A DNA stretch of 64,000 bases from Dehalococcoidales bacterium (GCA_034419075.1 DAOULR010000001.1:1766-65765), one strand, 5' to 3'. Positions 31,026 to 63,999 are shown, counted from the stretch's first letter. A program made the numbers and translations. The notes: generated by a model from the letters alone, not told the origin.

Positions 31026-33125
31026 ATGAAAAGATTTGAAAAACTGCTCTCACCATACTACATAGGTAAGGTAAAGACCAGAAACCGGCTAATCAAATCA
31101 GGCGCGTCGACACTGTACTGGCACGACGATGAGCTCCATATGAACAAGACAATGCTAGCCTACTACGAGGCCATAGCCAGGGGCGGTGTCGGTCTATTGA
31201 TAGTAGAATCCCCAACTATTGATTATCCTTCGAGTTCCCGCTGGAGCCAGATATACCGCTTTGACGATGATAAATACATTGAGGGCATGAGCGAGCTGGT
31301 ACAGGTAATCCACAAGCACGGCTGCCCGACCTTCATGCAGATGGTCCACCTCGGCCCCTGGCAGAACCCGCTGTTCTCTAACCAACCACCTATTTCCAAC
31401 CTACCGCCAGTAGGAGCCTCGCCGGTCAAACTGGATTCACCGGGCGATTTTCAGCGTGACTTGATTAGAGAACTCACCATCCCCGAGATTAAGAAAATCG
31501 TGGATAAGTTTGCCTCTGCCGCAGTGCGGGCGCAAAAGGCTGGCTTTGATGGGATAGATATAAACGCCGGCAGCACCCATTTGATGCATAACTTCCTGTC
31601 TCCGTTCTGGAACCGAAGAAAGGATGCTTATGGTGGCAGCCGGGAAAACAGAGCCCGATTCTTAGCCGAAATCATCAAGGAAATCAAAAGTCGTTGTGGA
31701 CAGGACTTCCCGGTCGCGGTCTGTATGAACGGCATCGAAATCGGCCGGACCGTCGGTGTCGATGACAACCAGTGTATGACAGTTGAAGATAGCCAGGGGC
31801 TAGCCAGGATAATAGAGGCGGCTGGCGCCGACGCCATTCAGGTAAGAAATCAGTGGTTGGGCTACCACGTCGGCGGCTTTCTCCCTGACTACCTTTTCTA
31901 CCCGGAGCCTCCCATCCCCCTGAAAGACTTTCCCAAAGAGTACAACGCCAGCCATCGTGGGGATGGAGCTAATATATACCTGGCCGAAGGCATGAAAAAG
32001 ATACTATCCATTCCCATCATCGTGGTCGGCAGACTTGACGCTGAACTTGGGGAGAAAGTCCTGCGTAAAGGCCAGGCCGACTTTATCGCCACAACCCGGA
32101 ACATCTTCGCCGACACCGAGTTTCCCAACAAGATTGCCGCGGGAAGATTGGAGGATATTGCCCCCTGCACGCAATGCGGCACCTGTTTGGACCAGACTAT
32201 CCAGATGAAACGGCGCTGCCGGATTAATGCGGCTATAGCCACTGAGAAGTATACCGTCGACCCAGTAAAGAAGCGAAAACAGGTAGTCGTGGTTGGCGGT
32301 GGGCCAGCCGGTATGGAGGCGGCCAGGGTGGCGGTGCTGAGGGGACACGAAGTAACCCTTTACGAGAAATCGTCTAAGCTGGGCGGACTTCTCGACCTAG
32401 CGGCGCTGATAAAAGGAGTCGAGCTTGAAGACCTGCCCGGCATGGTCCGCTACCTTAGAACTCAGCTTAATAAACTTGGAGTAAAGATAAGGCTCGGCAA
32501 AGAGGTTGATAGCTCGATAATCGAGGAGACCAAGCCAGATGTGGTCATCGTAGCCAGTGGCGGCACGCTTACCGTACCGGAGATAACCGGCATAAACAAC
32601 AAGAATGTGGTCACGACTCCCGCTCTGCACCGTCGGGTGAAGCCATTCTTGAGACTTTTCGGGCCGAGACTGCTGGGCTGGCTGACCAAATTCTGGTTGC
32701 CCATCGGCCAGAGGGTCGTCGTCATCGGCAGTGGCATACACGGTTTTGAAACTGCCGAGTTCCTGGTCAAGCGCGGCCGGAAGGTCACCATCGTGGACAC
32801 CGCTGAGGAGCCGGGCGAAGGGATGATAGACTTCCGTCTGGGGTTATCTCTGGACTGGTTCGATAAAAAAGGGGTGACCCTGATTAACGGCGTTAAGTCT
32901 ATGGAGATAACGGCTAAAGGGCTGAGCTTCGTTAGCCGGAAAGGGAAGAAAGAGACCCTGGAAGCCGATAGCGTTATCCCCACCGCGCCGCTGACGGCAA
33001 ACACCAGCTTATTTAAGAGCCTTGAGGGGAAAGCCCCTGAGGTTTATGCCATTGGCGACTGTGGCCAGCCCCGCATGATAGTAGACGCCATTGCCGATGG
33101 CTGGCAAATCGGTAATAAGATATAA
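31026..33125 (+). CDS. NADH:flavin oxidoreductase (OYE-like TIM barrel + 4Fe-4S + FAD/NAD domains; FadH/BaiCD family)
   Basis: ARGGVGLLIVE, AGFDGIDIN, CTQCGTC...C, VVGGGPAGMEAA motifs. Confidence 0.92.
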   Translation: MKRFEKLLSPYYIGKVKTRNRLIKSGASTLYWHDDELHMNKTMLAYYEAIARGGVGLLIVESPTIDYPSSSRWSQIYRFDDDKYIEGMSELVQVIHKHGCPTFMQMVHLGPWQNPLFSNQPPISNLPPVGASPVKLDSPGDFQRDLIRELTIPEIKKIVDKFASAAVRAQKAGFDGIDINAGSTHLMHNFLSPFWNRRKDAYGGSRENRARFLAEIIKEIKSRCGQDFPVAVCMNGIEIGRTVGVDDNQCMTVEDSQGLARIIEAAGADAIQVRNQWLGYHVGGFLPDYLFYPEPPIPLKDFPKEYNASHRGDGANIYLAEGMKKILSIPIIVVGRLDAELGEKVLRKGQADFIATTRNIFADTEFPNKIAAGRLEDIAPCTQCGTCLDQTIQMKRRCRINAAIATEKYTVDPVKKRKQVVVVGGGPAGMEAARVAVLRGHEVTLYEKSSKLGGLLDLAALIKGVELEDLPGMVRYLRTQLNKLGVKIRLGKEVDSSIIEETKPDVVIVASGGTLTVPEITGINNKNVVTTPALHRRVKPFLRLFGPRLLGWLTKFWLPIGQRVVVIGSGIHGFETAEFLVKRGRKVTIVDTAEEPGEGMIDFRLGLSLDWFDKKGVTLINGVKSMEITAKGLSFVSRKGKKETLEADSVIPTAPLTANTSLFKSLEGKAPEVYAIGDCGQPRMIVDAIADGWQIGNKI

Positions 33126-33164
33126 GAAGAGAGCTAGCAAAAATTTCACGGAAAGAGGTGCGTC

Positions 33165-33671
33165 ATGACCTTAGAGGAAATGGGAAAAAGGCTGAAGGCG
33201 GCCGAGGGTGCTCTAGAGGAGTTGGGCAAGAGGGTCAGGGTTACCGAGGATATTCAGGAGATTCACGAGCTACAAAGGCGCTATATTAATGCCCTGATAT
33301 GCACCGAGTGGGACGATTGCGCCGACTGCTTTGCCGAAAACGCCAAGGTCGATGTCTACCTCCACGAACCAATCGAGGGCAACGCCGCCATTAGAAAGTG
33401 GTTCAAAGAGGAGCTTTCCAAGACACATGCCGGCAAGGAAGGTGACATTGTCGTTCACCCCGTTATCAAAGTCGACGGGGACAAGGCCACTGGTAAATGG
33501 CTGCTGTATATGATGTATTGCTACCCCCGCACCGGGCAATCGCTATTCTGGGTACAGGGATTCTATGATAATGAGTATGTAAGAGAGAACGGAAAATGGA
33601 AAATCAGCCTTATGTATTGGCGGGAGCGCATGGGGCTGCCCGGCAGCGGCCCGCCGGAGGGCCTTTGGTAA
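33165..33671 (+). CDS. SnoaL-like / NTF2-family protein
   Basis: DIQEIHELQRRY, W...F.ENA, YDNEYVRENGKWKIS motifs. Confidence 0.85.
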   Translation: MTLEEMGKRLKAAEGALEELGKRVRVTEDIQEIHELQRRYINALICTEWDDCADCFAENAKVDVYLHEPIEGNAAIRKWFKEELSKTHAGKEGDIVVHPVIKVDGDKATGKWLLYMMYCYPRTGQSLFWVQGFYDNEYVRENGKWKISLMYWRERMGLPGSGPPEGLW

Positions 33672-33690
33672 ATAAAACCGGGAGGGCACT

Positions 33691-34731
33691 ATGAAAGTTG
33701 CCGTGTATGAAGGAGAAAGGTCCCTAAAGTTGCAGGAGCGGCCAAAGCCAAAGGCCGCCCCCGGCGAGGTAATTGTCAAGATAAAGTACTGCGGCATCTG
33801 TGGCACCGATGTCCACGCTTATCTGCACGAAGGGCTGCTACCGCCAGGGCTGGTCCTGGGCCACGAGAACGTGGGTACTATCGCCGAAATGGGAGAGGGG
33901 GTCGAAGGCTGGAAGGTAGGTGAGCGCGTGGTAGCTGGCCCTCCCGGAATGTGCGGAGAATGCTACTACTGTAAGCATGGCTACCCCACCCTCTGTGAGA
34001 CCGGCTTCAGCCGGACCAACGGACTCGCCCCGGGTCACGACGGCGGCATGGCGGAGTATATGAAGGTGCGCGAGCCGAAGACCATGCTGCACCGGATTCC
34101 CGATGAAGTCTCCTTTGAGGATGCCGTCCTGATGGATACCATCGCCGTGGGCCTGCGCGGAGTCCTGCAGTCTAAGTTCCGCTTTGGGGATAACGTGGTG
34201 GTGGTCGGCGCTGGCTCTATCGGATTGGGGGTCATACAGTGGCTGAAATTGGGCGGGGCGAGGCATATTACCGTCCTCCAACCTTCCCCCCAGAAACGGG
34301 AGCTTGCCCTCAAGTTCGGTGCCGATGTGGCTTTGAACCCTCTGGAAGAAGGCGATGCCCTGGAGGGGAAGGTCAAAGCCTTCTACGGCGGCATCGGGGC
34401 CGATGTCGTCTTTGAGTGTGCCGGCACGCCCCAGGCAGTTAAGACAGCTCTAGAGGTCGTCAGGGGCGCTGGTCAGGTGCTGCTCCTCGGCGTAAGCGGC
34501 GAGGAGACGCCTTTAGTCGAGGCAATGCTGGTGCAGCGGGAAATAGAGCTTAAGGCCACTCTGGCCTATGGCGAGGATGAAATTCGCCTGTGCCTTGATT
34601 TTCTAGCGCGGCGTCGCTTCAATACCGAGGGCATGGTGTCGGACATTATCAGCCTTGATGACATCGTGGAGAAGGGGTTTGAAAGGCTGGCAACAACCAA
34701 GGGTCTGGTAAAGGTCCTGGTGGCTCCATAG
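33691..34731 (+). CDS. zinc-dependent medium-chain alcohol dehydrogenase
   Basis: CGICGTDVH, GHE, CGECYYC...C, GAGSIG motifs. Confidence 0.93.
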   Translation: MKVAVYEGERSLKLQERPKPKAAPGEVIVKIKYCGICGTDVHAYLHEGLLPPGLVLGHENVGTIAEMGEGVEGWKVGERVVAGPPGMCGECYYCKHGYPTLCETGFSRTNGLAPGHDGGMAEYMKVREPKTMLHRIPDEVSFEDAVLMDTIAVGLRGVLQSKFRFGDNVVVVGAGSIGLGVIQWLKLGGARHITVLQPSPQKRELALKFGADVALNPLEEGDALEGKVKAFYGGIGADVVFECAGTPQAVKTALEVVRGAGQVLLLGVSGEETPLVEAMLVQREIELKATLAYGEDEIRLCLDFLARRRFNTEGMVSDIISLDDIVEKGFERLATTKGLVKVLVAP

Positions 34732-34747
34732 CTTGGAGGCAACTAAT

Positions 34748-35668
34748 TTGGCCGAAACAAAGCAGCCCAAAATAATTGGCTTGTCATGTGGTAGAGTAAA
34801 CGGCAACTGCGAAATACTTCTAAAAGAGGCCTTGATGGCCGCTGAAGAGCTGGGGGTTCAATCTGAAATAATCCGTGCTATGGAGCTAAGAGTAAAACCA
34901 TGCAAAGGTTGTGAAGCCTGCACTATAGCACTGGGAAGGGGCAAAGAACCGAGGTGTGCCATCACCGACGATGATGTTCCCTGGATTTTGGACAAGGTTC
35001 TAGTGGAGGATTGCGCCTTGATAGTTAGTGCCCCAGTATATCACTTAAGAGCTAACTCATATTTTGAGGCAATTCACGAAAGAATGCTGCCAACCATGTT
35101 CCGGCACCCGGAAATTACTGAGAAAACAAGGATAGGTGGTATTATCTGCGTCGGCGGCGGAGAACCCGAGTGGACGCCCCTAGGTCTCACCTCGATTAAC
35201 ATTTTTATCCAGCATACCCGCAAGCTGGTCGACCAGATGCAGTCCAATTTTTATCAGCGACCGGGCTCAGTCCTGCTGGAGAAGAAATACATTGAACGAG
35301 CCAGAAAACTGGGACAGAATGTGGCCAGGGCGATGATGATGCCGATCGAAGAGGTGAAATACGTCGGCGAGGATACCGAAGCATCCTGTCCCGTCTGCCA
35401 CGGCGACGTCTGGAAGGTGCCGGGCGAACTCTCTGATGTCTACTGCCCAGTATGCTGGGTACACGGAACCATACATGCCGACGGAGACAAGCTGAAGGTT
35501 AAGTGGGACGAAGACAATGTAAAGAATCCCCGATTCTCCACAAAATTCATCGGCAAGCACCTGGATTTCATCACCGAATCGCACCAAAAATTCTTTACCG
35601 AAGGCCAAAACAAAATAAAAGGGCAGTTAGAGAAATACACCTCGTACGGTAAAATCATAAAGCCGTGA
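34748..35668 (+). CDS. flavodoxin-fold protein (NADPH-dependent FMN reductase / iron-sulfur flavoprotein family) with C-terminal CPVC..CPVC
   Basis: GRVNGNCE, PCKGCEAC, SAPVY motifs. TTG 34748 follows a GGAGG RBS. Confidence 0.8.
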   Translation: MAETKQPKIIGLSCGRVNGNCEILLKEALMAAEELGVQSEIIRAMELRVKPCKGCEACTIALGRGKEPRCAITDDDVPWILDKVLVEDCALIVSAPVYHLRANSYFEAIHERMLPTMFRHPEITEKTRIGGIICVGGGEPEWTPLGLTSINIFIQHTRKLVDQMQSNFYQRPGSVLLEKKYIERARKLGQNVARAMMMPIEEVKYVGEDTEASCPVCHGDVWKVPGELSDVYCPVCWVHGTIHADGDKLKVKWDEDNVKNPRFSTKFIGKHLDFITESHQKFFTEGQNKIKGQLEKYTSYGKIIKP

Positions 35669-35731
35669 TATTGATTCAGGTTTCAAGAATTACTAGCCCA
35701 GTTAGTAAATGGTTTGGAAAAGGGAGGGCCC

Positions 35732-36319
35732 ATGCTGTTCGAGGAAGTTAACCAGCTCTTAGAGCCAGGATATCTGCCCATGGAAACCGGCTATTGCCGC
35801 TTACCGAACGGGCAGTCGTTTGCCGCCACTCTGGTCAGGATGCCCGGCTGCCAGGCGAAAATGCTCGACTGGTGGTTTGGCTCTTTTCTTAGAGATACTG
35901 AGACCTATAAGCAATGGGACCCAAAAGCTCACCTGCGTTTTGAGTGGGACGATAAATGGAGTCCGGGACACTATATTGGTGCCAGCCACTATGGTGAGGA
36001 ACACTTGGCCGGAGAGGTGCTTAAGTTCGTAGTCAAATTTGATGACCCTGCCCTATTCTTCGACACCTCCAGGTTTAAGGAAGCCAGGGTGGGGGCTGTC
36101 GTCTGTGGCCAGGGCTTTCTCCCTGACGGAACGCCGGACGGGCGTTTTGTTCATCTTGCCCGCGATACCGACTATGGCTGCGAAGTACGCAGCCGATTCT
36201 GGATTTATAGTGGCGACGAGAAGATAGCCCGGGGGCATATGGAGCATTGTCTTTCTGAAATGGGTTATATGGCTGACTTGCTACCTAGTGTCTATCCCAA
36301 GGAGCCTGGTGACCAATAG
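35732..36319 (+). CDS. DAPG hydrolase PhlG-like protein
   Basis: METGYCRLPNG, MPGCQAKMLDWWF, WDPKAH, RSRFW, HCLSEM (HxxxE) motifs typical of PhlG-family domains. Confidence 0.8.
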   Translation: MLFEEVNQLLEPGYLPMETGYCRLPNGQSFAATLVRMPGCQAKMLDWWFGSFLRDTETYKQWDPKAHLRFEWDDKWSPGHYIGASHYGEEHLAGEVLKFVVKFDDPALFFDTSRFKEARVGAVVCGQGFLPDGTPDGRFVHLARDTDYGCEVRSRFWIYSGDEKIARGHMEHCLSEMGYMADLLPSVYPKEPGDQ

Positions 36320-36356: not shown

Positions 36357-37136
36357 TTACTTTCCCAATACTATGCCCGCGGGGTCTATTTCCTCACGCA
36401 GTATTCTTAAATGCTCCTCTGAAGGCTCGGGACTGGTGGCAACCTTGTCAGGAATGATAATTTCAAAGCCGCTGTTCTCTTTTACCTCGGCTATACTCAC
36501 GCCCGGATGTAACGAGATTAATTTAAGCCTTTTTGTTTCCTCATCGAAGCCATAGATGCCCAGTTGGGTGATAACCCGATACGGTCCTGTGCCGGCCGGT
36601 AATCCGACCCTTTCCCTACCCCCCGGCCCGTCTAAGTAGCCGGGGGTGGTTAAGAAATCGACCTTGCTGACGAAGGTTCTCTTTGACTGATTGGTAATAG
36701 TGGTTATGAGCCTTTGCGAGAAAGAGGCTACATCATTAGCCCCGCCACTACCGGGCAAGCGAACTTTGGGCAAGTCATGGTCACCTATAACGGTAGTGTT
36801 GATATTTCCGTACCTGTCCATCTGGGCGGCGCCTAGGAATCCAAAATCTATATATCCCGCTTGGGAAATTGACATAACATCGTGCATGCTGGAGGCAGCT
36901 ATAGCTCGATGAAAGGTTCTGGATTCGCCAACCGATATGGCTAGTTCAGGTAGCTGAGGTCCTACCCCACCAGCCTCAAACACGATAAGTAAATTAGGGG
37001 CATGCGTTTTCTGCGCCAGTGTGGCGGCTATTATGGGAAGCCCCGTGCCCACAAAAACAGATTTTTTGTCCTCTAAGACACTGGCGCCACTGAATGCCAG
37101 GAATTCCCTTAGATTATATCTATCTTCTTTTATCAT
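36357..37136 (-). CDS. family I CoA-transferase beta subunit (glutaconate CoA-transferase B-like)
   Basis: VFVGTGLP, LIVFEAG, GAAQMDRYGNIN, RLPGSGGAND motifs. Confidence 0.9.
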   Translation of the reverse strand: MIKEDRYNLREFLAFSGASVLEDKKSVFVGTGLPIIAATLAQKTHAPNLLIVFEAGGVGPQLPELAISVGESRTFHRAIAASSMHDVMSISQAGYIDFGFLGAAQMDRYGNINTTVIGDHDLPKVRLPGSGGANDVASFSQRLITTITNQSKRTFVSKVDFLTTPGYLDGPGGRERVGLPAGTGPYRVITQLGIYGFDEETKRLKLISLHPGVSIAEVKENSGFEIIIPDKVATSPEPSEEHLRILREEIDPAGIVLGK

Positions 37137-40407: not shown

Positions 40408-40417
40408 CAGGCGCTAT

Positions 40418-44431: not shown

Positions 44432-44592
44432 TATCTGATCTCCCGACTAGCTCAGGCTAACGATAAACTATCCGCTTTAATAACAATCACCAGCAAGCTG
44501 GAGGGATGAAATGCGGAATAACTTGCCACCAATCCAGGCAATGCGCACCACCCCCCAGCTTGCTAAAGGAGAGACCATGAAGAATATTCTAT

Positions 44593-49265: not shown

Positions 49266-49320
49266 TGTATGTCTCCTTAGATTAACTGATTCCGTACTAT
49301 TCAATACACAATTTTAAAGC

Positions 49321-51869: not shown

Positions 51870-51918
51870 TTCGGCCCGTGACTTGTTTGGTTATTTTTTG
51901 ATTGGAGGAGGAAAGCCA

Positions 51919-54434: not shown

Positions 54435-55106
54435 ATGTCGGAAACAGGGGAATACAAGGAACTTCTAAAAAGACTGGAAAAAGCCGAAAAAAACGCCCAG
54501 ATAGCCAGAGATTGGGTTGAGATTTCTAATCTGCACGGACGTTATAATCACCTTTGTTTAGGCCACTATTGGGAAAAAATCTGCGATGAGCTTTTTGCCA
54601 AGAAGACCCCCGGGGTCAAGGCAGAGATAGTTGAGAGCGGTGTTTTCCACGGCATTGAGGGCGTCAAAAAGGTTTTTATAGAGATGCTGGGCAAGCTCTA
54701 TAACTACGAAGGGAACTGCGCCATCCACGAGCTGACGACGCCGGTTATTCAGATACAACCGGATATGAAAACAGCCAAAGGGATGTGGTTCCATATCGGG
54801 CTTAACACATTTCTTGATCCGGTCAAGGGCGTGATTCCCATATGGCAAGTTATAAAATACAACCATATCTTCGTTAAAGAAGACGGACAGTGGAAGTTCT
54901 GGGACTACCGGGCTCATCTGATGCTACGCAGTTCCTACGAAAAGGCATGGGTTGAAGAACCAGTTATTCAGGGTAGTACTATCAAGGGCGCCAAGGAAGC
55001 CGAAGCGCCCAAACCCGATGAGCCGACCAGTTTCCATCAGCCCTACCCCGGGAAGAAAGGATACTGGGCAGGCCTGCCACTGCCACCGGAATACATTGAC
55101 CTTTAG
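54435..55106 (+). CDS. SnoaL-like / NTF2-family protein
   Basis: EISNLHGRY, IHELTTPVI, KYNHIFVKEDGQWKFW motifs. Confidence 0.85.
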   Translation: MSETGEYKELLKRLEKAEKNAQIARDWVEISNLHGRYNHLCLGHYWEKICDELFAKKTPGVKAEIVESGVFHGIEGVKKVFIEMLGKLYNYEGNCAIHELTTPVIQIQPDMKTAKGMWFHIGLNTFLDPVKGVIPIWQVIKYNHIFVKEDGQWKFWDYRAHLMLRSSYEKAWVEEPVIQGSTIKGAKEAEAPKPDEPTSFHQPYPGKKGYWAGLPLPPEYIDL

Positions 55107-58737: not shown

Positions 58738-59295
58738 ATGGAAACACTGGAAGCAATAGAAAAGAGGGCCAGTCTAAAAACACATCTCTCAACGCGTGAA
58801 GTTGAACAGGACAAAATAATCAAGGTCCTGGAAGCCGCCAGACTGGCACCCTCAGCAACTAACGAACAGCCATGGCGATTCGTTGTGGTTAAGGGCAAAG
58901 AGAATGTTGAGAATGTGGTAACCAGAGCATCCAGAATGGGGAGAAAAGCGTTTGATGAAGCACCTGTCCTTATTCTCGTATTTGTTAATCCCAAGGACTA
59001 TGTTTTCCCTGATGGGAAAACATTTTATCTTCTTGACATAGGTCTAGCGATGGAAAACGTTCTCTTGGCGGCGACTGACCTTGGGCTAATTACTCATCCG
59101 ATGGCAAGTCTGGACGGGGACAAGCTGAAAGAAATGCTGGGTATTCCTGATGAAATGGAGTTTATCATCGCCACGCCTCTCGGATATCCGGTCGAGAGTT
59201 CCTACGAAGAGGCAGCTCAGGAAAGATTAAGCCAACGCAACCGGAAAGACCTCAAAGAATTGGTTTGTATGAACGCTTGGGGGAGGCCATTTTAG
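58738..59295 (+). CDS. nitroreductase family protein
   Basis: IEKRAS, AARLAPSATNEQPWRFVVV, AATDLGL motifs. Confidence 0.93.
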   Translation: METLEAIEKRASLKTHLSTREVEQDKIIKVLEAARLAPSATNEQPWRFVVVKGKENVENVVTRASRMGRKAFDEAPVLILVFVNPKDYVFPDGKTFYLLDIGLAMENVLLAATDLGLITHPMASLDGDKLKEMLGIPDEMEFIIATPLGYPVESSYEEAAQERLSQRNRKDLKELVCMNAWGRPF

Positions 59296-59481: not shown

Positions 59482-60144
59482 CTAAAGCTCGATGTCTTTC
59501 AAATCCTCGGCCAGAATTAGTCTAGGCTCAGTAACAGCCTGTATCTCGTCCGCCGACCAGCCGGGGGCGACCTCTTTTAGCACCAGTCCCTCTTTGGTAA
59601 CTTCAATAACGGCGATATCGGTAACGATCAAGTCCACGCACTCTCTGGCGGTAAGAGGATAATCACACTCTTTAACAATCCGGTAGTTGCCGTCCTTGGT
59701 GGTGTGTAACATGGCTACAATCAGCTTTTTAGCACCAGCCGCCAGGTCCATGGCACCACCCATACCGATTCCATGCCTTGTTCCCGTTCGCCAGTTTGCC
59801 AAGTCCCCTTTCTCCGATACCTGATAGGCCCCCAGAACGGTGATATCAATATGACCACCTAATATCATGTCAAAGGCTTCAGCGCTGTTGAAAACAGACA
59901 TGCCAGGCGCGGGGGTGATAAACTGAGCTGAGGCGTTAATCAAATCCTCATCTCCTTCGCCCGGGGCAGCCAGTGGGCCAGCGCCAAGTAGTCCAATCTC
60001 ATATTGAAATAAAACAGTCCTGCCCTCGGGAATAAAGTCGGCGGCTAAACTAGGCATGCCATAGCCTAGATTGACCACGTCCCCGTCCTTAAATTCCTTG
60101 GCAACCCTGAGGGCAATCGTCCGTTCGTCGAGTCGCTCTTTCAT
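59482..60144 (-). CDS. 3-oxoacid CoA-transferase subunit B
   Basis: VNLGYGMP, GGHIDITVLGAYQVS..GDLANW, GMGGAMDL motifs. Confidence 0.93.
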   Translation of the reverse strand: MKERLDERTIALRVAKEFKDGDVVNLGYGMPSLAADFIPEGRTVLFQYEIGLLGAGPLAAPGEGDEDLINASAQFITPAPGMSVFNSAEAFDMILGGHIDITVLGAYQVSEKGDLANWRTGTRHGIGMGGAMDLAAGAKKLIVAMLHTTKDGNYRIVKECDYPLTARECVDLIVTDIAVIEVTKEGLVLKEVAPGWSADEIQAVTEPRLILAEDLKDIEL

Positions 60145-60872
60145 CCTCGGCCTCCTGTTGGGCGTATAGGTACTATCCGGTCAACATACAGGCAAGGGGT
60201 GTGAATGTGGTCAGGGTCAAGCTCACCGGGTTGCACCAGATGCTCAACCTCGGCGATAGTTACATCAGCAGCCGTGGCCATTACCGGGTTGAAGGTCCGG
60301 GCAGCTAAGCGATACACCAGGTTTCCCATGGTATCGGCCTTGTGCGCTTTGATAAGGGCGTAGTCTGCCCTCAGTGGGAGCTCAAAGAGATATTCTTGGC
60401 CATTAATTACCCTCTTTTCCTTCCCCTCTTCAATAACGGTGCCAATCCCAACTTTGGTATAGAAGCCACCCATACCCGCTCCCCCGGCCCGTATCCGGTG
60501 CACTAATGTTCCCTGCGGAACTATCTCCAACTCGACCTCGTCCTTATTGAACTGCACTTCAAAGGGTGAAATGGGTGGCAGGTTGCCCAGGGCGGGGAGA
60601 CACGAAATGGCTTTCTTAACCTGGTGATTCTCAAATAGTATCCCGTGGTCGGGGTAGCCATCAGGAGGTCTTACCAGCTTTGACTGTTCCAGCCCATGGC
60701 CCATATGAACCTGTACGAGGGTAAGGTTCTTAGCCCCCTGCCTGGCCAGCGCGTATATCAGATTATGTGGTAGACCCGCCGGCGGTCCAAAGCCACCTAT
60801 GAATATTACCGCTCCATCCGGTATATCAGCTACGGCGGCGTCACAGGAACTGTATATTTTATCTATAGGCAT
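60141..60872 (-). CDS. 3-oxoacid CoA-transferase subunit A
   Basis: IPDGAVIFIGGFG, PQGTL..RIRAGGAG, ADTMGNL, ARTFNP motifs. Confidence 0.93.
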   Translation of the reverse strand: MPIDKIYSSCDAAVADIPDGAVIFIGGFGPPAGLPHNLIYALARQGAKNLTLVQVHMGHGLEQSKLVRPPDGYPDHGILFENHQVKKAISCLPALGNLPPISPFEVQFNKDEVELEIVPQGTLVHRIRAGGAGMGGFYTKVGIGTVIEEGKEKRVINGQEYLFELPLRADYALIKAHKADTMGNLVYRLAARTFNPVMATAADVTIAEVEHLVQPGELDPDHIHTPCLYVDRIVPIRPTGGRG

Positions 60873-60921: not shown

Positions 60922-62052
60922 CTATAACCCTAACTCCCGGGCTATCTTCTCGCGATGGAAATCAGCATCGCCAAATGCAATCTCGGCGGCCTTGGCCCGC
61001 CTGGTGTATAGCTCTAAGTCTAAGTCTTTAGTCCAGCCAATAGCGCCATGGATCTGGTGACTTAAGGCGGTAACCCGGCGATAGGCCTCACTGCACCAAG
61101 CCTTGGCTATAGCCACCTCTTTTGAACAGGGAAGTCCTTCATCTATCATCCAGGCTGCCTTATAGGTATGGAACCTAGAGGCATCAACATCTATGGCTAT
61201 ATTGACACAATAATGCTGGATGGCCTGAAAACTGCCGATGGGACGTCCGAATTGGGTCCTTTCTTTGGCATAACTAACCGTCATATCCAGAACCCGCTGG
61301 GCCCCACCTACCATATCAGCGCATTTGGCCACAGCTGCCCGCTCCAGAATTTTCCCCACACCCTTCCCAGCCCGGCCGACTTCCCCGATTACACTTTCTC
61401 GTGGCACCTTTATGCTATTAAAGTTGACCTCAAACTGCTTGTCACCGGCTATAGTCTTAAGCAGCGTGTAATCTATGCCGGGGCTCTTGGCATCGACCAG
61501 GAAAAGGCTAACGCCTTGATCCGCCCTACTGCCCTCAGTTCGGGCACTAACAACCAGATAATCAGCGATGTGGGCATCAGGAACAAAGAGCTTGGTGCCG
61601 GTAAGGAGGTATCCGTCTTCATCGGCAATAGCCTGACAGCTAATATCAGCCGGGTCATAACTATCGCTTGGTTCAACTAGAGCTAAGGTGCAGACTATAT
61701 CCCCCCTAGCTATGCGGGGCAAGAGCTTCCCTTTTTGTTCTTCACTGCCCATATCCAGGATAGTCAGACCACCCAGAACTACTGTGGGTAGGAAAGGAGA
61801 GGGCAGGCAAGCTCGTCCCATTTCCTCAAGCAGTACAACCAAGTCTGAAAAGCTGCCCCCATTTCCTTCGTACCTTTCCGGGAATGGTAGTGCCATCCAA
61901 CCCAACTCCGCCATGCTGTGCCATAGCTGGGCTGAATACCCTATCTCATCTTCTTCCATCTCCCTAACCAGCTTCTTAGGGCACTCTTTCTCCAGAAAAT
62001 CACGAGCCGTTCTCTTTAATAGCTCCTGCCCTTCAGAAAGGGAAAAATCCAC
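60922..62052 (-). CDS. acyl-CoA dehydrogenase, short subunit of a heteromeric pair (FadE27/ChsE-like)
   Basis: RTQFGRPIGSFQAIQH, HQIHGAIG, AFGDADFHRE motifs; lacks the catalytic-Glu motifs. Confidence 0.88.
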   Translation of the reverse strand: MDFSLSEGQELLKRTARDFLEKECPKKLVREMEEDEIGYSAQLWHSMAELGWMALPFPERYEGNGGSFSDLVVLLEEMGRACLPSPFLPTVVLGGLTILDMGSEEQKGKLLPRIARGDIVCTLALVEPSDSYDPADISCQAIADEDGYLLTGTKLFVPDAHIADYLVVSARTEGSRADQGVSLFLVDAKSPGIDYTLLKTIAGDKQFEVNFNSIKVPRESVIGEVGRAGKGVGKILERAAVAKCADMVGGAQRVLDMTVSYAKERTQFGRPIGSFQAIQHYCVNIAIDVDASRFHTYKAAWMIDEGLPCSKEVAIAKAWCSEAYRRVTALSHQIHGAIGWTKDLDLELYTRRAKAAEIAFGDADFHREKIARELGL

Positions 62053-62088
62053 CTCTTACCTCCTTAATTCGGGGTTGAACCCTTCAGA

Positions 62089-63270
62089 CTAACCTCGGGG
62101 CAGTCCCAGACCCCTAGTAGCCACGATATTCCTCTGGATTTCTGATGTGCCCGTGAAAAGAGTAAAGGCAAAGGTCTCTAGGTACCAGCGCTCTATTAAA
62201 CCTTGGAGCACCGCCCATTTGGAGCCCTCCGCTAGCTGGCCGAATGAGCCCAAGAGCTTCATGGCCGCATTGGCAGCTCGCTGCTGAGCTTCATAGCTGA
62301 ACGCCTTGCTCATGGATACTTGCGCCGTAGTGGGGAGTCCCCGGCTAGCCAGCCAAGCTCCTCGATAGGAAAGCAAGCGCGCTGTCTCTATTTCGATTTC
62401 TATATCGGCTAGACGCTGCCGAACCAGCGGGTTTCTCCCTTTACCCTCCTCTTTCACATATCGCACCAGCATCTCGAAAAGCCGCCGCATGGTTGCGATT
62501 GGCCCTATATCTAGCCCTCGCTCGAAGTCCAGCAGTGTCATAGCCACCTCCCAACCTTGGTCCTTTTGCCCCAAGATGTTCTTCCGGGGAACCCTTACTT
62601 CATCGAGGAAAACCTCACATAGATTGCCACCACCCCCCATATCGGTTATGGTGCGAACCGTGATACCTGGCGTTGTCATATCTAACAAGAGGAATGTGAT
62701 GCCCATATGCTTTTTGGGGGGAGACGGGTCTGTTCGTACCAAAAGGAAGCACCAGTCCGTCTTGTGGGCACCGCTTGTCCAAAGCTTCCGGCCGTTAATA
62801 ATCAGGCTGTTGCCATCCTCCCGAGCTAAGGTTTGAATTGAGGCTAGGTCAGAGCCTGTTTCGGGCTCGCTAAATCCCTCACACCAGAACCTCTCCCCCT
62901 GGGCAATGGGGGGCAGGTGTTGCTTCTTCTGTTCTTCAGTTCCAAAGCGAATAATGGTGGGAGCAAGCATACCCACCGTGAACCCATCCCAACCAGGGGC
63001 ACCCCGGTAGTGAATCTCCTCCTGCAGAATGGTACCCAGCAAAGGACTACCTTCTCTACCACCGTATTCCTTAGGCCAGCCCAGGGTGAGCCACCCCTTC
63101 TCTCCAAATTTACGCGCCATAACCTTCTGTAGTTCCCATACTCCGTCACGATAACGGTCTTCCGCCGGATTTATCACCGCCAGTTCATGCTCTAAAGGCA
63201 GTTCTTTTTCCAAAAAGTCCCGGACTTCCCGGCGGAAGGATTCCTCTTCAGCACTAAAGCCGAATTCCAT
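62089..63270 (-). CDS. acyl-CoA dehydrogenase, catalytic subunit of a heteromeric pair (FadE26/ChsE-like)
   Basis: WPKEYGG, FSEPETGSDLASI, NGRKLWTS, LDFERG, GTSEIQRNIVA motifs. Confidence 0.92.
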   Translation of the reverse strand: MEFGFSAEEESFRREVRDFLEKELPLEHELAVINPAEDRYRDGVWELQKVMARKFGEKGWLTLGWPKEYGGREGSPLLGTILQEEIHYRGAPGWDGFTVGMLAPTIIRFGTEEQKKQHLPPIAQGERFWCEGFSEPETGSDLASIQTLAREDGNSLIINGRKLWTSGAHKTDWCFLLVRTDPSPPKKHMGITFLLLDMTTPGITVRTITDMGGGGNLCEVFLDEVRVPRKNILGQKDQGWEVAMTLLDFERGLDIGPIATMRRLFEMLVRYVKEEGKGRNPLVRQRLADIEIEIETARLLSYRGAWLASRGLPTTAQVSMSKAFSYEAQQRAANAAMKLLGSFGQLAEGSKWAVLQGLIERWYLETFAFTLFTGTSEIQRNIVATRGLGLPRG

Positions 63271-63273
63271 GGT

Positions 63274-63999
63274 TTATTGGCCTTCCTTAGACTGTTTTAT
63301 CGTTTGGGTAAGTAACGGCACTACCTGATGCAGGTCAGCCACTATGCCGTAGTCGGCAATTTGAAATACCGGAGCCTCGGGGTCGCTATTTATAGCAACT
63401 ATGGTCTCAGATTCCCTCATCCCGGCGAGGTGCTGGACAGCCCCGGATATGCCACAGGCAATATATAGCTTTGGTCTTACAGTTTTTCCCGTTTGACCTA
63501 CCTGATGGGTGCTTGATATCCATCCAGCGTCAACTACGTCCCGCGAGGCGCCAACCTCACCGCCCAAGGCCTTGGCCAACTCTTCGATTAACTCAAATTT
63601 TTCCGGTGTTCCCACCCCCCTACCGCCGGAGACAATAATATCAGCCTCCTCCAGGTTAACGCTCTTTTCTCCCTCTTTGACTATCTCCACTATCCTGACC
63701 ATTGTACTCTTCGGGTCAATATCTAAGGGTATCTTTATTACCTCACCCTTTCTGGCTACATCCCTATCCAGAGCCTTCATAACCCTGGGCCTGACCGTCG
63801 CCATTTGAGGTCTGTTTATTGGCGTTACAATAGAGGCCATAATGTTGCCGCCGAAGGCTGGCCTGGTCTGCACCAACAGACGCGCCTCCTTATCAATGCT
63901 AAGCCCGGTACAATCCGCGGTTAATCCTGTCCCTATCCTCCGGGCGATTCGTGGGGCTAGATCCCTACCCAGGTAAGTTGCCCCTATAAGGAATATCTC
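63274..63999 (-). CDS. etfA: electron transfer flavoprotein alpha subunit (5' truncated by the window end)
   Basis: The frame is open to the window end (GLTADCT, QTRPAFGGN, GGRG, QVGQTG, GISGAVQH, AINSD). Confidence 0.95.
   Translation of the reverse strand, partial: EIFLIGATYLGRDLAPRIARRIGTGLTADCTGLSIDKEARLLVQTRPAFGGNIMASIVTPINRPQMATVRPRVMKALDRDVARKGEVIKIPLDIDPKSTMVRIVEIVKEGEKSVNLEEADIIVSGGRGVGTPEKFELIEELAKALGGEVGASRDVVDAGWISSTHQVGQTGKTVRPKLYIACGISGAVQHLAGMRESETIVAINSDPEAPVFQIADYGIVADLHQVVPLLTQTIKQSKEGQ

Follow-up and report, generated by a model that had tools for sequence, protein, structure and literature searches.

A 33-kb gene island of an uncultured Dehalococcoidia bacterium that most likely directs anaerobic breakdown of plant flavonoids and the phloroglucinol ring

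Homology and gene neighbourhoods indicate that a 33-kb island of an uncultured Dehalococcoidia bacterium most likely serves the anaerobic breakdown of plant flavonoids and the phloroglucinol ring. The stretch of DNA analysed here (the window) is 64,000 nucleotides long, and its genes at 31026-64000 were inventoried by Pfam and NCBIfam profile searches. They are arranged, over the two strands, in no fewer than seven transcription units, which we regard as probably constituting one catabolic supra-operon for flavonoid, dihydrochalcone or phloroglucinol-type plant polyphenols. The original prediction, made from the sequence, spoke of an undescribed pathway, which is too strong: the island follows the described flavonoid-to-phloroglucinol-to-acetyl-CoA route in a variant form, and key steps are taken by non-orthologous enzymes. 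It is most likely a non-canonical version of the gut-Firmicutes route, in which unusual ring-opening hydrolases and an uncharacterised Mo/W enzyme would replace the gut-bacterial enzymes.

The gene types named in the original prediction are all present, and its overall logic of import, redox tailoring, hydrolytic C-C cleavage, CoA transfer and beta-oxidation-like steps holds. The proposed Dehalococcoidia origin is upheld by RpoA, which is 92% identical to a protein of a "Dehalococcoidia bacterium" MAG. The substrate, in contrast, was said to be unreadable from the sequence, and it can be narrowed to the polyphenols named above for three reasons. A flavone reductase (FLR) homologue has a phloretin-hydrolase homologue and an enoate-reductase-type OYE as its neighbours; the Mo/W enzyme occurs inside canonical phloroglucinol clusters of Archaeoglobus and Deltaproteobacteria-labelled MAGs; and OCH-like hydrolase genes lie beside BKACE in Firmicutes-type loci.

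Genes of the flavonoid end

The known flavonoid pathway consists of Flr, Fcr/enoate reductase, CHI and Phy (PMC8398226, PMC10470551). In the island, the FLR homologue (34733-35668, plus strand, 311 residues) lies directly upstream of the phloretin-hydrolase homologue, in an operon shared with an OYE/FAD enzyme and a SnoaL_4 protein. Its sole PDB match is 7D38, the FLR of Flavonifractor plautii (95 bits, residues 13-282 on 2-277), and orthologues of 77-84% identity are found in loci L012 and L016. The phloretin-hydrolase homologue (35714-36319, plus strand) is a short C-C hydrolase of the phloretin-hydrolase/PhlG family with 201 residues (Pfam DAPG_hydrolase, 145.6 bits). About 50 N-terminal residues are missing, both HxxxE stretches are kept in the alignment, and L012 contains a 91% orthologue with a tblastn match of about 199 residues. 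The original prediction called it PhlG-like, but phloretin hydrolase 5XE5 is a closer match (107 bits) than PhlG 3HWP (63 bits). Both the FLR and the phloretin-hydrolase homologies are distant, and this counts against the flavonoid reading.

The OYE (FMN) plus FAD/NAD(P) flavoenzyme of this operon (31026-33125, plus strand, 699 residues, Pfam Oxidored_FMN and Pyr_redox_2) matches the NCBIfam BaiCD model with 337 bits, under the cut-off. It belongs to the 2,4-dienoyl-CoA reductase/BaiCD/enoate-reductase type and is a candidate chalcone- or flavanone-reducing ene-reductase; its orthologues of 75-82% identity adjoin the Mo/W enzyme gene in L012, L013, L015, L016 and L019. Its constant partner is the NTF2-like SnoaL_4 protein (33165-33671, plus strand, 168 residues, 85.7 bits), whose 83-89% orthologues adjoin the orthologues of the OYE gene. 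This protein may be an eliminase or isomerase, acting for example in C-ring opening. A Zn-dependent medium-chain alcohol dehydrogenase follows (33691-34731, plus strand, 346 residues, Pfam ADH_N and ADH_zinc_N; 86-90% orthologues in L012 and L101). Further along the island are a second SnoaL_4 protein (54435-55106, plus strand, 223 residues, Pfam; 83-96% orthologues in L012, L096, L097 and L101) and a second OYE plus FAD flavoenzyme (55162-57249, minus strand, 695 residues, Pfam; 71-81% orthologues in L005, L013, L022 and L101). The FLR homologue, the two SnoaL_4 genes (33165 and 54435) and an HMGL-like gene (57298) are additions to the original gene list.

The step-by-step roles proposed for the island enzymes are deduced from these homologies. 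The flavone C2=C3 bond would first be reduced by the FLR homologue. The C-ring would then be opened by a SnoaL_4 protein and reduced by an OYE/FAD ene-reductase to a dihydrochalcone, whose aryl-ketone C-C bond would be cut by the short phloretin-hydrolase homologue to leave a phloroglucinol-type ring. The roles given to the SnoaL_4 and HMGL-like proteins are purely conjectural. Neither a chalcone isomerase homologue nor a glycosidase was seen, which also counts against the flavonoid reading.

Ring-opening hydrolases and the Mo/W enzyme

Two beta-diketone hydrolase candidates of the 6-oxocamphor hydrolase/ABDH clade of the crotonase superfamily are encoded on the minus strand. OCH1 (40418-41335, 305 residues) matches 1O8U with 125 bits and 2J5G with 122 bits, versus 66 bits for the next crotonase in the PDB. 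OCH2 (41442-42437, 331 residues, 106 bits to 1O8U) is a second, divergent member with 35% identity to OCH1. The OCH-like assignment made originally is borne out for both: their scores against 1O8U (6-oxocamphor hydrolase) and 2J5G (a beta-diketone hydrolase from Anabaena) are 106-125 bits, whereas ordinary enoyl-CoA hydratases reach at most 66 bits. The catalytic residues His122, His145 and Asp154 are invariant in OCH1 and OCH2. Among 33 metagenome loci with OCH genes, OCH2 adjoins OCH1 in 11, and an OCH1-like gene stands beside BKACE in 13, including Aminipila and Sedimentibacter-type loci.

The most novel element of the island is a cytoplasmic Mo/W bis-MGD enzyme of the acetylene-hydratase-like (AH-like) family, with 707 residues from its likely start (38257-40407, minus strand). 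Its best PDB match is 2E7Z (369 bits versus 226 bits for the runner-up). Compared with acetylene hydratase, Cys141 is kept, Asp13 is replaced by His and Ile142 by Tyr. The His at the position of the catalytic Asp13 belongs to a C-x2-C-H-G-x-C motif that is family-wide in AH-like proteins, and an identity as acetylene hydratase is thereby ruled out. Homologues of 64-91% identity are spread across phyla. The close orthologues are accompanied by an NAD(P)H-reductase-like (Pyr_redox_2) flavoprotein and a ferredoxin-like (Fer4) partner, both absent from the window, which counts against the main reading; a Fer4 neighbour is present in 70 of 80 AH-like loci. Our best guess is accessory funnelling on a polyphenol ring by reductive dehydroxylation or by transfer of a hydroxyl group, with hydration as the alternative, so that the hydrolases would receive a ring of the phloroglucinol or resorcinol type.

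Related loci in Chloroflexota, Desulfobacterota-type MAGs, Bathyarchaeia and Archaeoglobus present the AH-like gene in two settings, the published phloroglucinol cluster and an OCH-like pair with an HMGL-like gene. In the first, AH-like enzymes of 70-77% identity lie within canonical SDR, cyclase, 3HCDH and BKACE clusters, namely in Archaeoglobus fulgidus (L002, L025), Deltaproteobacteria-labelled MAGs (L006, L021) and a Proteobacteria-labelled MAG (L020). Archaeoglobus has been named as a carrier of the phloroglucinol cluster (PMC10470551), and the BKACE of A. fulgidus scores 452.7 bits with the NCBIfam model of 3,5-dioxohexanoate:acetyl-CoA transferase, above the cut-off of 430. In the second setting (L022, L065, L107, L109), OCH1, OCH2 and the HMGL-like gene flank the same Cupin and AH-like genes where the first has cyclase and BKACE. 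Cyclase, BKACE, Cupin and the conserved "SDR271" gene are all absent from the window, which counts against the main reading. OCH and cyclase genes never share a locus, neither among the 33 OCH loci nor among the 7 AH-like loci with either gene. The marker genes are found in 10 of 13 loci whose AH-like protein is at least 70% identical, versus 1 of 67 below that level (Fisher p = 1.8e-9). The AH-like gene is also linked to phloretin-hydrolase or FLR genes in L012, L016 and L023; in L012 it is clustered with OYE, two SnoaL, Zn-ADH, Phy and FLR genes, and L016 shows the same clustering.

In the proposed route, OCH1 and OCH2 would open the keto or dihydro ring in place of the cyclase-family dihydrophloroglucinol cyclohydrolase, and the linear 3,5-diketo acid so formed may in turn be cleaved by one of the two. 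The C-C cleavage role of the canonical BKACE would be taken by the HMGL-like (DRE-TIM) lyase/synthase (57298-58533, minus strand, 411 residues, Pfam HMGL-like, 184.6 bits). This protein, of the isopropylmalate/citramalate-synthase type, lacks the regulatory domain. Its NCBIfam matches are under the cut-offs, and in L022, L065, L107 and L109 a 62% orthologue separates the OCH genes from the AH-like gene.

An unlikely alternative is that the ring is of the resorcinol type. It would be reduced by the OYE/FAD enzymes, possibly after dehydration of a hydroxy-diketone by SnoaL_4; OCH would convert cyclohexane-1,3-dione to 5-oxohexanoate, and CoA activation and beta-oxidation by ACADs, ETF, Hbd and thiolase would give acetyl-CoA, with the AH-like enzyme supplying resorcinol-type rings by dehydroxylation or hydrating resorcinol. 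OYE, SnoaL_4 and ACAD pairs are the most constant AH-like neighbours in Chloroflexota loci, and L010 and L011 carry OYE, OCH-like, ADP-forming acyl-CoA synthetase and SnoaL_4 genes in a row. Such a route also accounts for the three ACADs and ETF, which a direct phloroglucinol route does not need. However, BKACE requires a beta-keto acid, which 5-oxohexanoate is not, so its adjacency to OCH-like genes is left unexplained, as is the substitution pattern within otherwise canonical phloroglucinol clusters. Pfam shows no ordinary enoyl-CoA hydratase in the window that could serve beta-oxidation, and the FLR and Phy homologues indicate phloroglucinol-type A-rings. The sequence from resorcinol through cyclohexanedione to 5-oxohexanoate is itself established in fermenting clostridia, as cited in PMC10470551.

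Transport, CoA activation and downstream genes

A TRAP transporter (42666-45633, minus strand; DctP 44593-45633, DctQ 43964-44431, DctM 42666-43967, by Pfam) heads the operon of the OCH and AH-like genes. The system also stands before OCH genes in L105, L106 and L096, and it is present in phloroglucinol clusters L006, L021 and L107. TRAP binding proteins usually take carboxylate ligands. An aromatic acid would therefore be a better fit than a neutral aglycone or phloroglucinol, which counts against the main reading. The place of the TRAP genes here and in those clusters agrees with a quite improbable alternative in which gallate or another hydroxybenzoate is imported and decarboxylated, the AH-like enzyme is a non-canonical hydroxyl-transferase that converts pyrogallol or hydroxyhydroquinone to phloroglucinol, and the OCH operon is a module for tannin monomers whose position beside the flavonoid genes is incidental. 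The Amidohydro_2 family includes hydroxybenzoate decarboxylases, and in L006 and L021 a gene of this family comes after the AH-like gene (Pfam), but the window contains no decarboxylase gene. The known transhydroxylase likewise belongs to the bis-MGD enzymes and has an Fe-S beta subunit (PMC10100899), which recalls the frequent Fer4 neighbours of AH-like genes. Yet the AH-like family has a Cys ligand and is distant from the transhydroxylase PgtL, which is Ser-ligated (PMC10100899) and is not among the best 60 PDB matches listed for the AH-like protein. The NAD(P)H-reductase-like flavoprotein of close orthologues suggests net redox chemistry, and the ties to Phy and FLR genes in L012, L016 and L023 also speak against this alternative.

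Continuing with the flavonoid and phloroglucinol route, 3-hydroxy-5-oxohexanoate, triacetate or acetoacetate would be activated by Gct-like and ScoAB-type CoA-transferases. The glutaconate-CoA-transferase-like pair comprises a beta subunit (36357-37136, minus strand, 259 residues, Pfam CoA_trans) and a GctA-like alpha subunit (37174-38184, minus strand, 336 residues), which matches GctA 1POI with 151 bits, AibA with 107 bits and IpdA with 63 bits. The pair is 65% (alpha) and 61% (beta) identical to that of the Archaeoglobus phloroglucinol cluster, and the alpha subunit is 90% identical in L101. The 3-oxoacid CoA-transferase (59482-60872, minus strand; A 60141-60872, B 59482-60144) passes both NCBIfam models (pcaI_scoA_fam 234 bits, cut-off 128.5; pcaJ_scoB_fam 271 bits, cut-off 243.6). 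In orthologous loci, an AMP-binding/ACAS_N ligase that we read as probably acetoacetyl-CoA-synthetase-like takes the CoA-transferase position.

Hbd, SDR, thiolase, ACADs and ETF would then yield acetyl-CoA and possibly butyryl-CoA. The thiolase (47447-48658, plus strand, 403 residues) is of the SCP-x/PhlC type with Cys88 and passes NCBIfam PRK06157 (614 bits); its 89-93% orthologues stand beside OCH1 in L096 and L101. Upstream of it, a PhlA/HMG-CoA-synthase-like domain is fused to a DUF35 (PhlB-like) Zn-ribbon/OB domain (45979-47427, plus strand, 482 residues, Pfam). The PhlABC-like set proposed originally is confirmed by the matches of this fusion to the "DAPG biosynthesis protein" 9SKH (145 bits), archaeal HMGCS 6ESQ (128 bits) and PhlA 5M3K (122 bits), with 60 bits for the DUF35 part to 6ESQ_E. 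It has no Cys or Glu at what we take to be the HMGCS catalytic positions. Hbd, a 3-hydroxybutyryl-CoA dehydrogenase (51883-52779, plus strand, 298 residues), matches PRK07819 with 369 bits (cut-off 319). The only SDR of the window (49598-50359, plus strand, 253 residues, Pfam) is of the (3R)-hydroxyacyl-CoA dehydrogenase/HSDL2 type, with best PDB matches to 3E03, HSDL2 and MFE-2. It is not recognisable as a phloroglucinol reductase, being 31-34% identical to the PGR-like SDRs of canonical clusters, and the window has no phloroglucinol reductase orthologue, which counts against the proposed route.

An acyl-CoA dehydrogenase with a C-terminal extension (52840-54360, plus strand, 506 residues, Pfam ACAD domains) is AcrC-like at 275 bits, under the NCBIfam cut-off. 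A pair of acyl-CoA dehydrogenases (60922-63270, minus strand, Pfam) is PimD-like (60922-62052, 209 bits) and PimC-like (62089-63270, 232 bits), both under the NCBIfam cut-offs, and the resemblance suggests a heteromeric enzyme. Its 47-57% orthologues follow AH-like and Fer4 genes in L003 and L005. The ETF alpha gene (63274-64000, minus strand, Pfam ETF_alpha) is open to base 64000 and continues past the window end.

These genes bear on the terpenoid or steroid substrates that the original prediction also allowed and that have no specific support. A steroid, bile-acid-like or camphor-type terpenoid ketone would be tailored as a polycyclic enone by BaiCD-like OYE and BaiE-like SnoaL_4 proteins, cut as a bicyclic beta-diketone by the OCH-like enzymes, and have its side chains handled by heteromeric ACADs and the DUF35/thiolase pair. 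The 337-bit BaiCD match, weak IpdE2/PimCD-like matches of the ACAD pair, 6-oxocamphor hydrolase as the closest solved relative of the OCH-like proteins, and the Pfam names OB_ChsH2_C and zf-ChsH2 of the DUF35 domains all accord with this. However, its NCBIfam matches are all far under their cut-offs, the CoA-transferase is GctA-like rather than IpdA-like (151 versus 63 bits), and the ring-A hydrolase characterised for anaerobic steroid degradation is an Amidohydro_2 protein outside the crotonase family (PMC11780191). None of the related loci has recognisable steroid genes, and phloroglucinol-cluster, FLR and Phy genes are found there instead, which makes such a substrate very improbable.

The claim that a CoA ligase and an oxygenase are lacking holds for the ligase, as Pfam and NCBIfam detect no AMP-binding ligase in 31026-64000, but the oxygenase part is less than fully certain with an HpaB/AbfD-family flavoprotein present (50376-51869, plus strand, 497 residues, Pfam HpaB_N and HpaB). 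HpaB is formally an oxygenase family whose members are often O2-dependent, and this counts against an anaerobic reading. The CX3C Fe-S motif of 4-hydroxybutyryl-CoA dehydratase is absent from the sequence. Orthologues of 74-90% are found in L005, L096 and L101, and a 33% relative in the Bathyarchaeia locus L023. Along with this gene, a MarR-family regulator (48753-49304, minus strand, Pfam MarR_2) and a nitroreductase-family flavoprotein (58738-59295, plus strand, 185 residues, Pfam; 66-70% orthologues in L013 and L096) add to the genes listed originally.

Recurrence of the island in other lineages

The original prediction named a lack of conserved linkage as something that would refute it, but linkage is conserved across phyla. 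The island genes recur in differing order in Archaeoglobus, Bathyarchaeia, Desulfobacterota-type MAGs and Chloroflexota, and since rearranged loci of other lineages bring them together again, their co-location goes beyond chance. This recurrence, and the concentration of marker genes only around close AH-like orthologues (p = 1.8e-9), argue against unrelated redox and beta-oxidation operons juxtaposed by chance or genome compaction, the least probable of the readings considered. In favour of such a juxtaposition are the division of the island into seven or more transcription units, encoded on both strands, and the fact that many top-similarity loci (75-96% identity) may be close relatives, whose synteny is then not independent evidence. 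L101 also shows that not all parts are obligatorily linked: the AH-like, OCH2, TRAP, FLR and Phy genes are missing there. L101 nevertheless carries the rest of the island and, like L096, repeats nearly the whole gene set in 20 kb, so the AH-like enzyme and OCH2 may be part of a side branch.

Gene content and host of the island

The island at 31026-64000 contains the gene types listed in the original prediction, as an ORF listing and Pfam and NCBIfam scans confirm, and the ORF listing shows at least seven transcription units. Unit A lies on the forward strand and encodes an OYE/FAD flavoenzyme (OYE699, starting at 31026), a SnoaL_4 protein (SnoaL168, 33165), a Zn-ADH (33691), a 311-residue protein (34733-35668) and a protein with a DAPG_hydrolase domain (35714-36319). 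Unit B is transcribed on the reverse strand from 45633 to 36357 and encodes DctP, DctQ and DctM, two 6-oxocamphor hydrolase-like proteins of the crotonase fold, OCH2 (41442-42437) and OCH1 (40418-41335), a Mo/W bis-MGD enzyme (38257-40407), and CoA-transferase alpha and beta subunits. Unit C, on the forward strand, consists of an HMGCS/PhlA-like protein fused to DUF35, followed by a thiolase. After a MarR gene on the reverse strand, Unit D runs forward with an SDR, an HpaB-family protein, Hbd, an ACAD of 506 residues and a second SnoaL_4 protein (SnoaL223, 54435). Unit E, on the reverse strand, comprises an HMGL-like protein and the second OYE/FAD enzyme (OYE695, 55162). A single nitroreductase gene is on the forward strand, and Unit G, on the reverse strand, encodes ETF alpha (an intact frame that runs off the end of the window), two ACADs and a 3-oxoacid CoA-transferase A and B pair. 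The two SnoaL_4 proteins, the HMGL-like protein, the nitroreductase, MarR, the HpaB-family protein and the nature of the 311-residue protein had gone unmentioned before.

Upstream of the island, the window contains ribosomal-protein genes and rpoA. With RpoA sharing 92% identity with a protein recorded under 'Dehalococcoidia bacterium', the assignment of the DNA to Dehalococcoidia also holds. The G+C content is 0.56-0.61 in the upstream ribosomal-protein region and falls to 0.48-0.55 across the island. On contigs labelled 'Deltaproteobacteria bacterium' (L012 and L013; L-numbers denote genome or metagenome loci fetched as homologue neighbourhoods), as well as in Dehalococcoidales (L016), there are genes 82-91% identical to those of the island. 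The drop in G+C and the Deltaproteobacteria-labelled matches suggest that the island was transferred laterally or that MAG contigs were mis-binned. The stretch at 21944-28735, which separates the housekeeping genes from the island, encodes a protein of 1190 residues that combines a papain-family protease domain with a lectin-like domain and a Rha78A-type Ig domain, followed by GT4 and PMT_2-type glycosyltransferases.

Putative ring-opening enzymes and CoA-linked enzymes

Both OCH1 and OCH2 have the crotonase fold (Pfam ECH_1) and are closer to 6-oxocamphor hydrolase from Rhodococcus (OCH; 1O8U) and the Anabaena beta-diketone hydrolase (ABDH; 2J5G/2J5S) than to CoA-dependent enoyl-CoA hydratases. 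OCH1 scores 125 bits with 1O8U and 122 bits with 2J5G, compared with 66 bits for the best ordinary crotonase; for OCH2 the values are 106 bits with each structure and 47 bits. These best structural-database matches are ~34-35% identical to the window proteins. The OCH/ABDH clade comprises CoA-independent enzymes of the crotonase superfamily that carry out retro-Claisen cleavage of beta-diketones. An alignment of OCH1, OCH2, three homologues, OCH and ABDH shows no variation in the columns of the OCH catalytic residues His122, His145 and Asp154 (OCH numbering). In OCH1 the matching positions are H132, H154 and D163, within the motif VPGDG, which the window proteins keep. The alignment of the window proteins to OCH ends at residue 241, short of Glu244. 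Extensions at both the N and the C terminus make the window proteins 50-75 residues longer than OCH and ABDH, from which they also differ in occurring as two diverged paralogues in tandem. Alicyclic ketone degradation is a rival reading of the island; the nearest structures include a camphor-pathway hydrolase, and the context in the window is polyphenol catabolism, not camphor. An analogy with the anaerobic steroid ring-A beta-diketone hydrolase was set aside, as that enzyme is an Amidohydro_2 protein.

Neighbourhoods of OCH1 were collected from 33 metagenome loci of at least 5 kb retrieved with OCH1. BKACE occurs in 13 of the 33, all from a clade of 58-71% identity whose members include one from the complete genome of Aminipila luticellarii and a protein assigned by name to Sedimentibacter saalensis. 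OCH2 is found in 11 and an HMGL-like gene in seven, and none of the 33 contains a cyclase gene. No description of a crotonase-type hydrolase of the phloroglucinol pathway was found in the literature searched. In the Firmicutes-type clade, an HSP90/HtpG-like gene (HATPase_c_3 and HSP90, ~615 residues) is situated directly beside the OCH1-like and BKACE genes, at L008 10942-12810, L009 7984-9825 and in 11 of the 33 metagenome loci (L130-L151). OCH genes in six loci are joined by an SDR of 271 residues that is conserved at 72-89% identity in the two OCH clades (seen at L022 7817-8632, and in L093, L107, L109, L131, L135 and L138). The window has no orthologue of this SDR, which is a candidate for the missing ring reductase or for a hydroxy-acid dehydrogenase.

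The first protein of Unit C, of 482 residues with a DUF35 tail, has as its best PDB match the 'DAPG biosynthesis protein' 9SKH (145 bits), and scores near-equally with archaeal HMGCS (128 bits) and PhlA (122 bits). With the NCBIfam archaeal HMGCS model it reaches 228.6 bits, under the cut-off of 244. There is no Cys or Glu at the expected places in ADMANSLKAGTEA and FASTTFPY, the stretches presumed to hold the HMGCS catalytic Cys and Glu motifs, and this rules out an HMG-CoA synthase. The nucleophilic cysteine of the partner thiolase, Cys88, lies in NLCASG. Because of these scores, the lack of the HMGCS Cys and Glu, and the thiolase cysteine, 'PhlABC-like' was a fair description of the set. 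As in PhlABC (5M3K, 9SKH) and the archaeal thiolase/HMGCS/DUF35 complex (6ESQ), a KAS-III/HMGCS-like domain, a DUF35 Zn-ribbon/OB module and an SCP-x-type thiolase are all present; in contrast to these complexes, the A-like and B-like parts are fused into one protein. The set may serve either acyl transfer or thiolysis of 3,5-dioxohexanoyl-CoA, roles that look alike in sequence.

The first CoA-transferase pair is glutaconate-CoA-transferase-like (1POI GctA, 151 bits); an IpdAB-type steroid ring-opening 'CoA-transferase' is ruled out by the 63 bits obtained with IpdA. The second pair exceeds the NCBIfam cut-offs for 3-oxoacid CoA-transferase A and B, and Hbd exceeds that for 3-hydroxybutyryl-CoA dehydrogenase. 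The SDR of Unit D resembles (3R)-hydroxyacyl-CoA dehydrogenase-type SDRs. The HpaB-family protein (50376-51869) is far under the HpaB oxygenase models, with 195 bits against a cut-off of 480, and it could be O2-dependent. It lacks the CX3C Fe-S motif, which we take to be the signature of AbfD (4-hydroxybutyryl-CoA dehydratase), and that identity was rejected. Its gene is kept beside OCH1 and thiolase genes in L096 and L101, and a relative occurs in a phloroglucinol-type locus of Bathyarchaeia (L023).

The acetylene hydratase-like Mo/W family and its neighbours

The best solved relative of the Mo/W enzyme is acetylene hydratase (AH; 2E7Z), with 369 bits, the next match having 226 bits. The AH-like enzyme shares the bis-MGD fold (Pfam Molybdop_Fe4S4, Molybdopterin and Molydop_binding) and the N-terminal [4Fe-4S] cysteine motif, it has a cysteine aligned with the metal ligand Cys141 of AH, and it is likewise a cytoplasmic protein of ~710 residues without a signal peptide. 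In AH, Asp13 adjoins the second cluster cysteine and activates a water molecule. This residue is a histidine in the AH-like enzyme (CKSCHGGC versus CQSCDINC in AH). Of the hydrophobic ring of AH, Ile142 is replaced by tyrosine and Trp179 is not conserved. The loss of Asp13 and of the ring rules out that the protein is an acetylene hydratase. All 102 database homologues with an N terminus carry the motif C-x2-C-H-G-x-C, as do 76 of 80 genome loci, and since it is family-wide, the AH-like proteins form a distinct family. An exact database look-up of the protein from its TTG start gave no match; the database form (P0001) begins nine codons later and is found only on a 5.8-kb Logan fragment.

Whereas AH is a stand-alone, non-redox enzyme, most AH-like relatives have a ferredoxin-like (Fer4) partner, and many Dehalococcoidia paralogues also have an NrfD membrane subunit. 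A Fer4 gene lies near the AH-like gene in 70 of the 80 genome loci, and the order Fer4, NrfD-type membrane protein, catalytic subunit is seen in 53. These 53 loci are mostly Dehalococcoidales paralogues, 58-64% identical, in MAGs from peat, fen and groundwater. They look like a membrane-bound reductase family that has expanded in Dehalococcoidia. Such loci (within L026-L091; for example L053 287-1174 and L047 8343-9065) often occur in several copies per genome, and the genes that recur around them encode a carboxylesterase, a URO-D-like protein, a ThDP enzyme, a Zn-ADH and a LuxR-type regulator. The closest orthologues of the window protein are arranged as Pyr_redox_2 flavoprotein, AH-like, Fer4 and AMP-binding/ACAS_N ligase, which suggests an NAD(P)H-linked electron chain. 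All three partners are absent beside the AH-like gene of the window, where the position of the ligase is taken by the Gct-like CoA-transferase.

Homologues at 64-91% identity are distributed over Chloroflexota, Deltaproteobacteria-labelled MAGs, Spirochaetia, Bacillota, Bathyarchaeia, Promethearchaeota and Archaeoglobus fulgidus. In A. fulgidus DSM 8774, a 70%-identical AH-like gene is found among BKACE, Cupin, SDR, 3HCDH, cyclase, a CoA-transferase pair and thiolase. The BKACE passes the NCBIfam model for 3,5-dioxohexanoate:acetyl-CoA transferase, and the CoA-transferases are 65% and 61% identical to the Gct-like pair of the window. The same canonical arrangement with AH-like is present in MAGs labelled Deltaproteobacteria or Proteobacteria (L006, L007, L020 and L021). 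In L022, L065, L107 and L109, the cyclase and BKACE are replaced, and Cupin and AH-like are accompanied by OCH1 (86-90%), OCH2 (77-90%) and HMGL-like (62%) orthologues; in L131 they occur with OCH1, OCH2 and BKACE. In a further group (L012, L013, L015, L016 and L019), AH-like adjoins orthologues of OYE699, SnoaL168, SnoaL223, Zn-ADH, the FLR-like 311-residue protein, the Phy-like DAPG_hydrolase-domain protein, OYE695, nitroreductase and ACADs. Bathyarchaeia locus L023 brings together Phy-like, HpaB-family, cyclase and AH-like genes, and in L101 and L096 nearly the whole island is repeated in 20 kb, with OCH1 directly before the CoA-transferase pair.

Among loci with an AH-like protein of 70% identity or more, 10 of 13 carry marker genes, compared with one of 67 below this value (Fisher p = 1.8e-9), with similar flank lengths in both groups; the single exception is at 69.8% identity. 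This distribution speaks against the rival view that the genes are juxtaposed by chance. A weak point is that the loci with the highest similarity may in many cases belong to related organisms.

Comparison with phloroglucinol clusters and a putative route

The phloroglucinol cluster known from the literature combines an SDR (PGR), a cyclase (DPGC), a 3HCDH (TfD) and a BKACE (TAL) (PMC10470551), and Zhou et al. reported it in Archaeoglobus (PMC10470551). Searches of the window by tblastn with Archaeoglobus and Deltaproteobacteria-type proteins found neither a DPGC cyclase nor a TAL BKACE, and the window also has no clear PGR orthologue and no Cupin. The window SDR is 31-34% identical to the canonical-cluster SDRs, phloroglucinol reductase is not among its PDB matches at E <= 1e-30, which are other SDR types, and its assignment as PGR is unsupported. 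Hbd is 36-39% identical to the TfD-type 3HCDH proteins. Because DPGC and TAL are absent, the island is not a canonical phloroglucinol cluster. It resembles the Clostridium scatologenes pathway (PMC10470551) in its inferred intermediates and end products, acetoacetate, acetoacetyl-CoA and acetyl-CoA, and in the accessory CoA-transferase, thiolase and Hbd. Clusters of this type in Archaeoglobus contain counterparts of the AH-like enzyme and the Gct-like pair. It differs in having no DPGC, no TAL and no clear PGR or TfD, and in related loci OCH-like hydrolases and the HMGL-like lyase occupy the places of DPGC and TAL. A resorcinol/cyclohexanedione route, likewise with a beta-diketone hydrolase of the OCH type, is a less likely rival.

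The 311-residue protein has a single PDB match, 7D38 (E = 3e-26), which aligns over nearly its full length (residues 13-282 with 2-277 of 310) and is the flavone reductase FLR of Flavonifractor plautii (PMC7862272). The Phy-like protein has a DAPG_hydrolase domain (145.6 bits; Pfam cut-off 22.7) and scores higher against the Mycobacterium phloretin hydrolase 5XE5 (107 bits) than against PhlG (3HWP, 63 bits). Both HxxxE stretches common to 5XE5 are present (SHYGEE and EHCLSE). With 201 residues it is shorter than the ~280-300 of the family: its residue 10 aligns with residue 60 of 5XE5, and ~50 N-terminal residues are missing. The short form appears to be characteristic of a subfamily rather than the result of truncation, because a 91% orthologue in L012 gave a tblastn match of similar span (~199 residues). 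As in the gut flavone/flavonol pathway of F. plautii and Eubacterium ramulus (Flr, CHI, Fcr/enoate reductase and Phy), FLR-like and Phy-like genes lie side by side with an OYE/FAD ene-reductase-type enzyme, and the same order of chemistry would give phloroglucinol and phenylpropionate. Unlike in that pathway, both homologies are distant, Phy-like is ~80 residues shorter, a CHI homologue is absent and SnoaL_4 proteins are the constant partners instead, the operon includes a Zn-ADH, and the organism is a Dehalococcoidia member from the environment instead of a Firmicute from the gut. The AF2 model of SnoaL_4, made without an alignment, had a mean pLDDT of 44.9, too low to use.

From these homologies and linkages we infer the following roles. 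By analogy, the island would work like the known anaerobic route from flavonoids through phloroglucinol to acetyl-CoA. The FLR-, ene-reductase- and Phy-type genes of Unit A would convert flavones, flavanones or dihydrochalcones to a phloroglucinol-type ring and phenylpropionate, modelled on the Flr/CHI/Fcr/Phy route (PMC8398226), with the SnoaL_4 proteins plausibly taking the C-ring-opening (beta-elimination) role. The OCH-like hydrolases would replace DPGC as the retro-Claisen ring opener, because they hold the place of the cyclase next to identical partners, Cupin and AH-like, are never found together with it, and are elsewhere followed by BKACE. The two paralogues may form a heteromer or perform sequential cleavages, of the ring and then of the linear 3,5-diketo acid. 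More speculatively, direct hydrolysis of the triketo tautomer of phloroglucinol to triacetate is chemically conceivable and would explain loci without PGR/TfD-type genes, such as L008. Because the HMGL-like protein appears where BKACE is missing, it is assigned as a putative C-C lyase. The Gct-like or ScoAB-type CoA-transferases, Hbd, SDR and thiolase would then take 3-hydroxy-5-oxohexanoate, triacetate or acetoacetate to acetyl-CoA, a CoA-dependent conversion that early work had already put forward for Pelobacter and Eubacterium (summarised in PMC10470551). A butyrate branch, or else beta-oxidation of the aryl-alkanoate product, could be the task of the ACADs and ETF. The AH-like enzyme would be accessory and act upstream on the polyphenol ring, since it lies beside complete canonical clusters and is absent from L101. 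Since the binding proteins of TRAP systems usually take up carboxylates, an aromatic acid may be what is imported. Entry through gallate or pyrogallol is a rival at this step: an aromatic acid could suit it, and the FLR-like and Phy-like genes point to flavonoids.

The AH-like family may be a new enzyme class. A broader joint reading, which we consider unlikely to hold as a whole, is that proteins with C-x2-C-H-G-x-C are a new functional class of Mo/W enzymes acting on polyphenol rings, by reductive dehydroxylation, hydroxyl transfer or hydration of a resorcinol/phloroglucinol tautomer. In it, the soluble form found in the window would feed phloroglucinol-type catabolism in Bacteria and Archaea, the membrane paralogues with Fer4 and NrfD would let non-dehalogenating Dehalococcoidia respire polyphenols, comparable to Eggerthella with catechols, and OCH-type hydrolases would replace DPGC, possibly converting phloroglucinol directly to triacetate without the detour of reduction and re-oxidation. 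If true, this would amount to a second, widespread system for anaerobic polyphenol mineralisation in peat, sediments and aquifers. To our knowledge, the sole genetically defined anaerobic phloroglucinol route is from Firmicutes. Together with related loci in MAGs from peat, fen, groundwater and marine sites, the island suggests a differently built route in abundant uncultured Dehalococcoidia, as well as in Desulfobacterota, Bathyarchaeia and Archaeoglobus, which surveys using PGR, DPGC, TfD and TAL as marker genes would miss. When peat and sediments are anoxic, polyphenols are believed to lock carbon away in them (the 'enzyme latch' idea, discussed in PMC10470551). Candidate activities are crotonase-fold hydrolases for phloroglucinol-derived diketones, a short type of phloretin hydrolase, and a Mo/W enzyme family that is 64-91% conserved across domains.

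No function for the AH-like family in phloroglucinol clusters was found in the literature searched. 'Acetylene hydratase-like' genes were noted on sediment Chloroflexi scaffolds, with nothing beyond that (Hug et al. 2013), and AH is the closest characterised relative of the catechol dehydroxylases Dadh and Cldh from gut Actinobacteria (PMC7028382). By analogy, this tie offers a lead to AH-like chemistry, not a test of it. Downstream of AH-like and Fer4, an IclR-type regulator and an aldehyde:ferredoxin oxidoreductase are encoded in two unrelated genomes, an Anaerolineales MAG (L003 16080-19731, called by Pfam) and a Bacillota MAG (L018 7505-10426, identified by eye from the sequences). The Amidohydro_2 family includes hydroxybenzoate decarboxylases. 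A gene of this family (Pfam) directly follows AH-like at 12160-13155 in L006/L021, where its product could add a third kind of partner for ring opening or decarboxylation, and a gene at L017 12680-13561 resembles it by eye.
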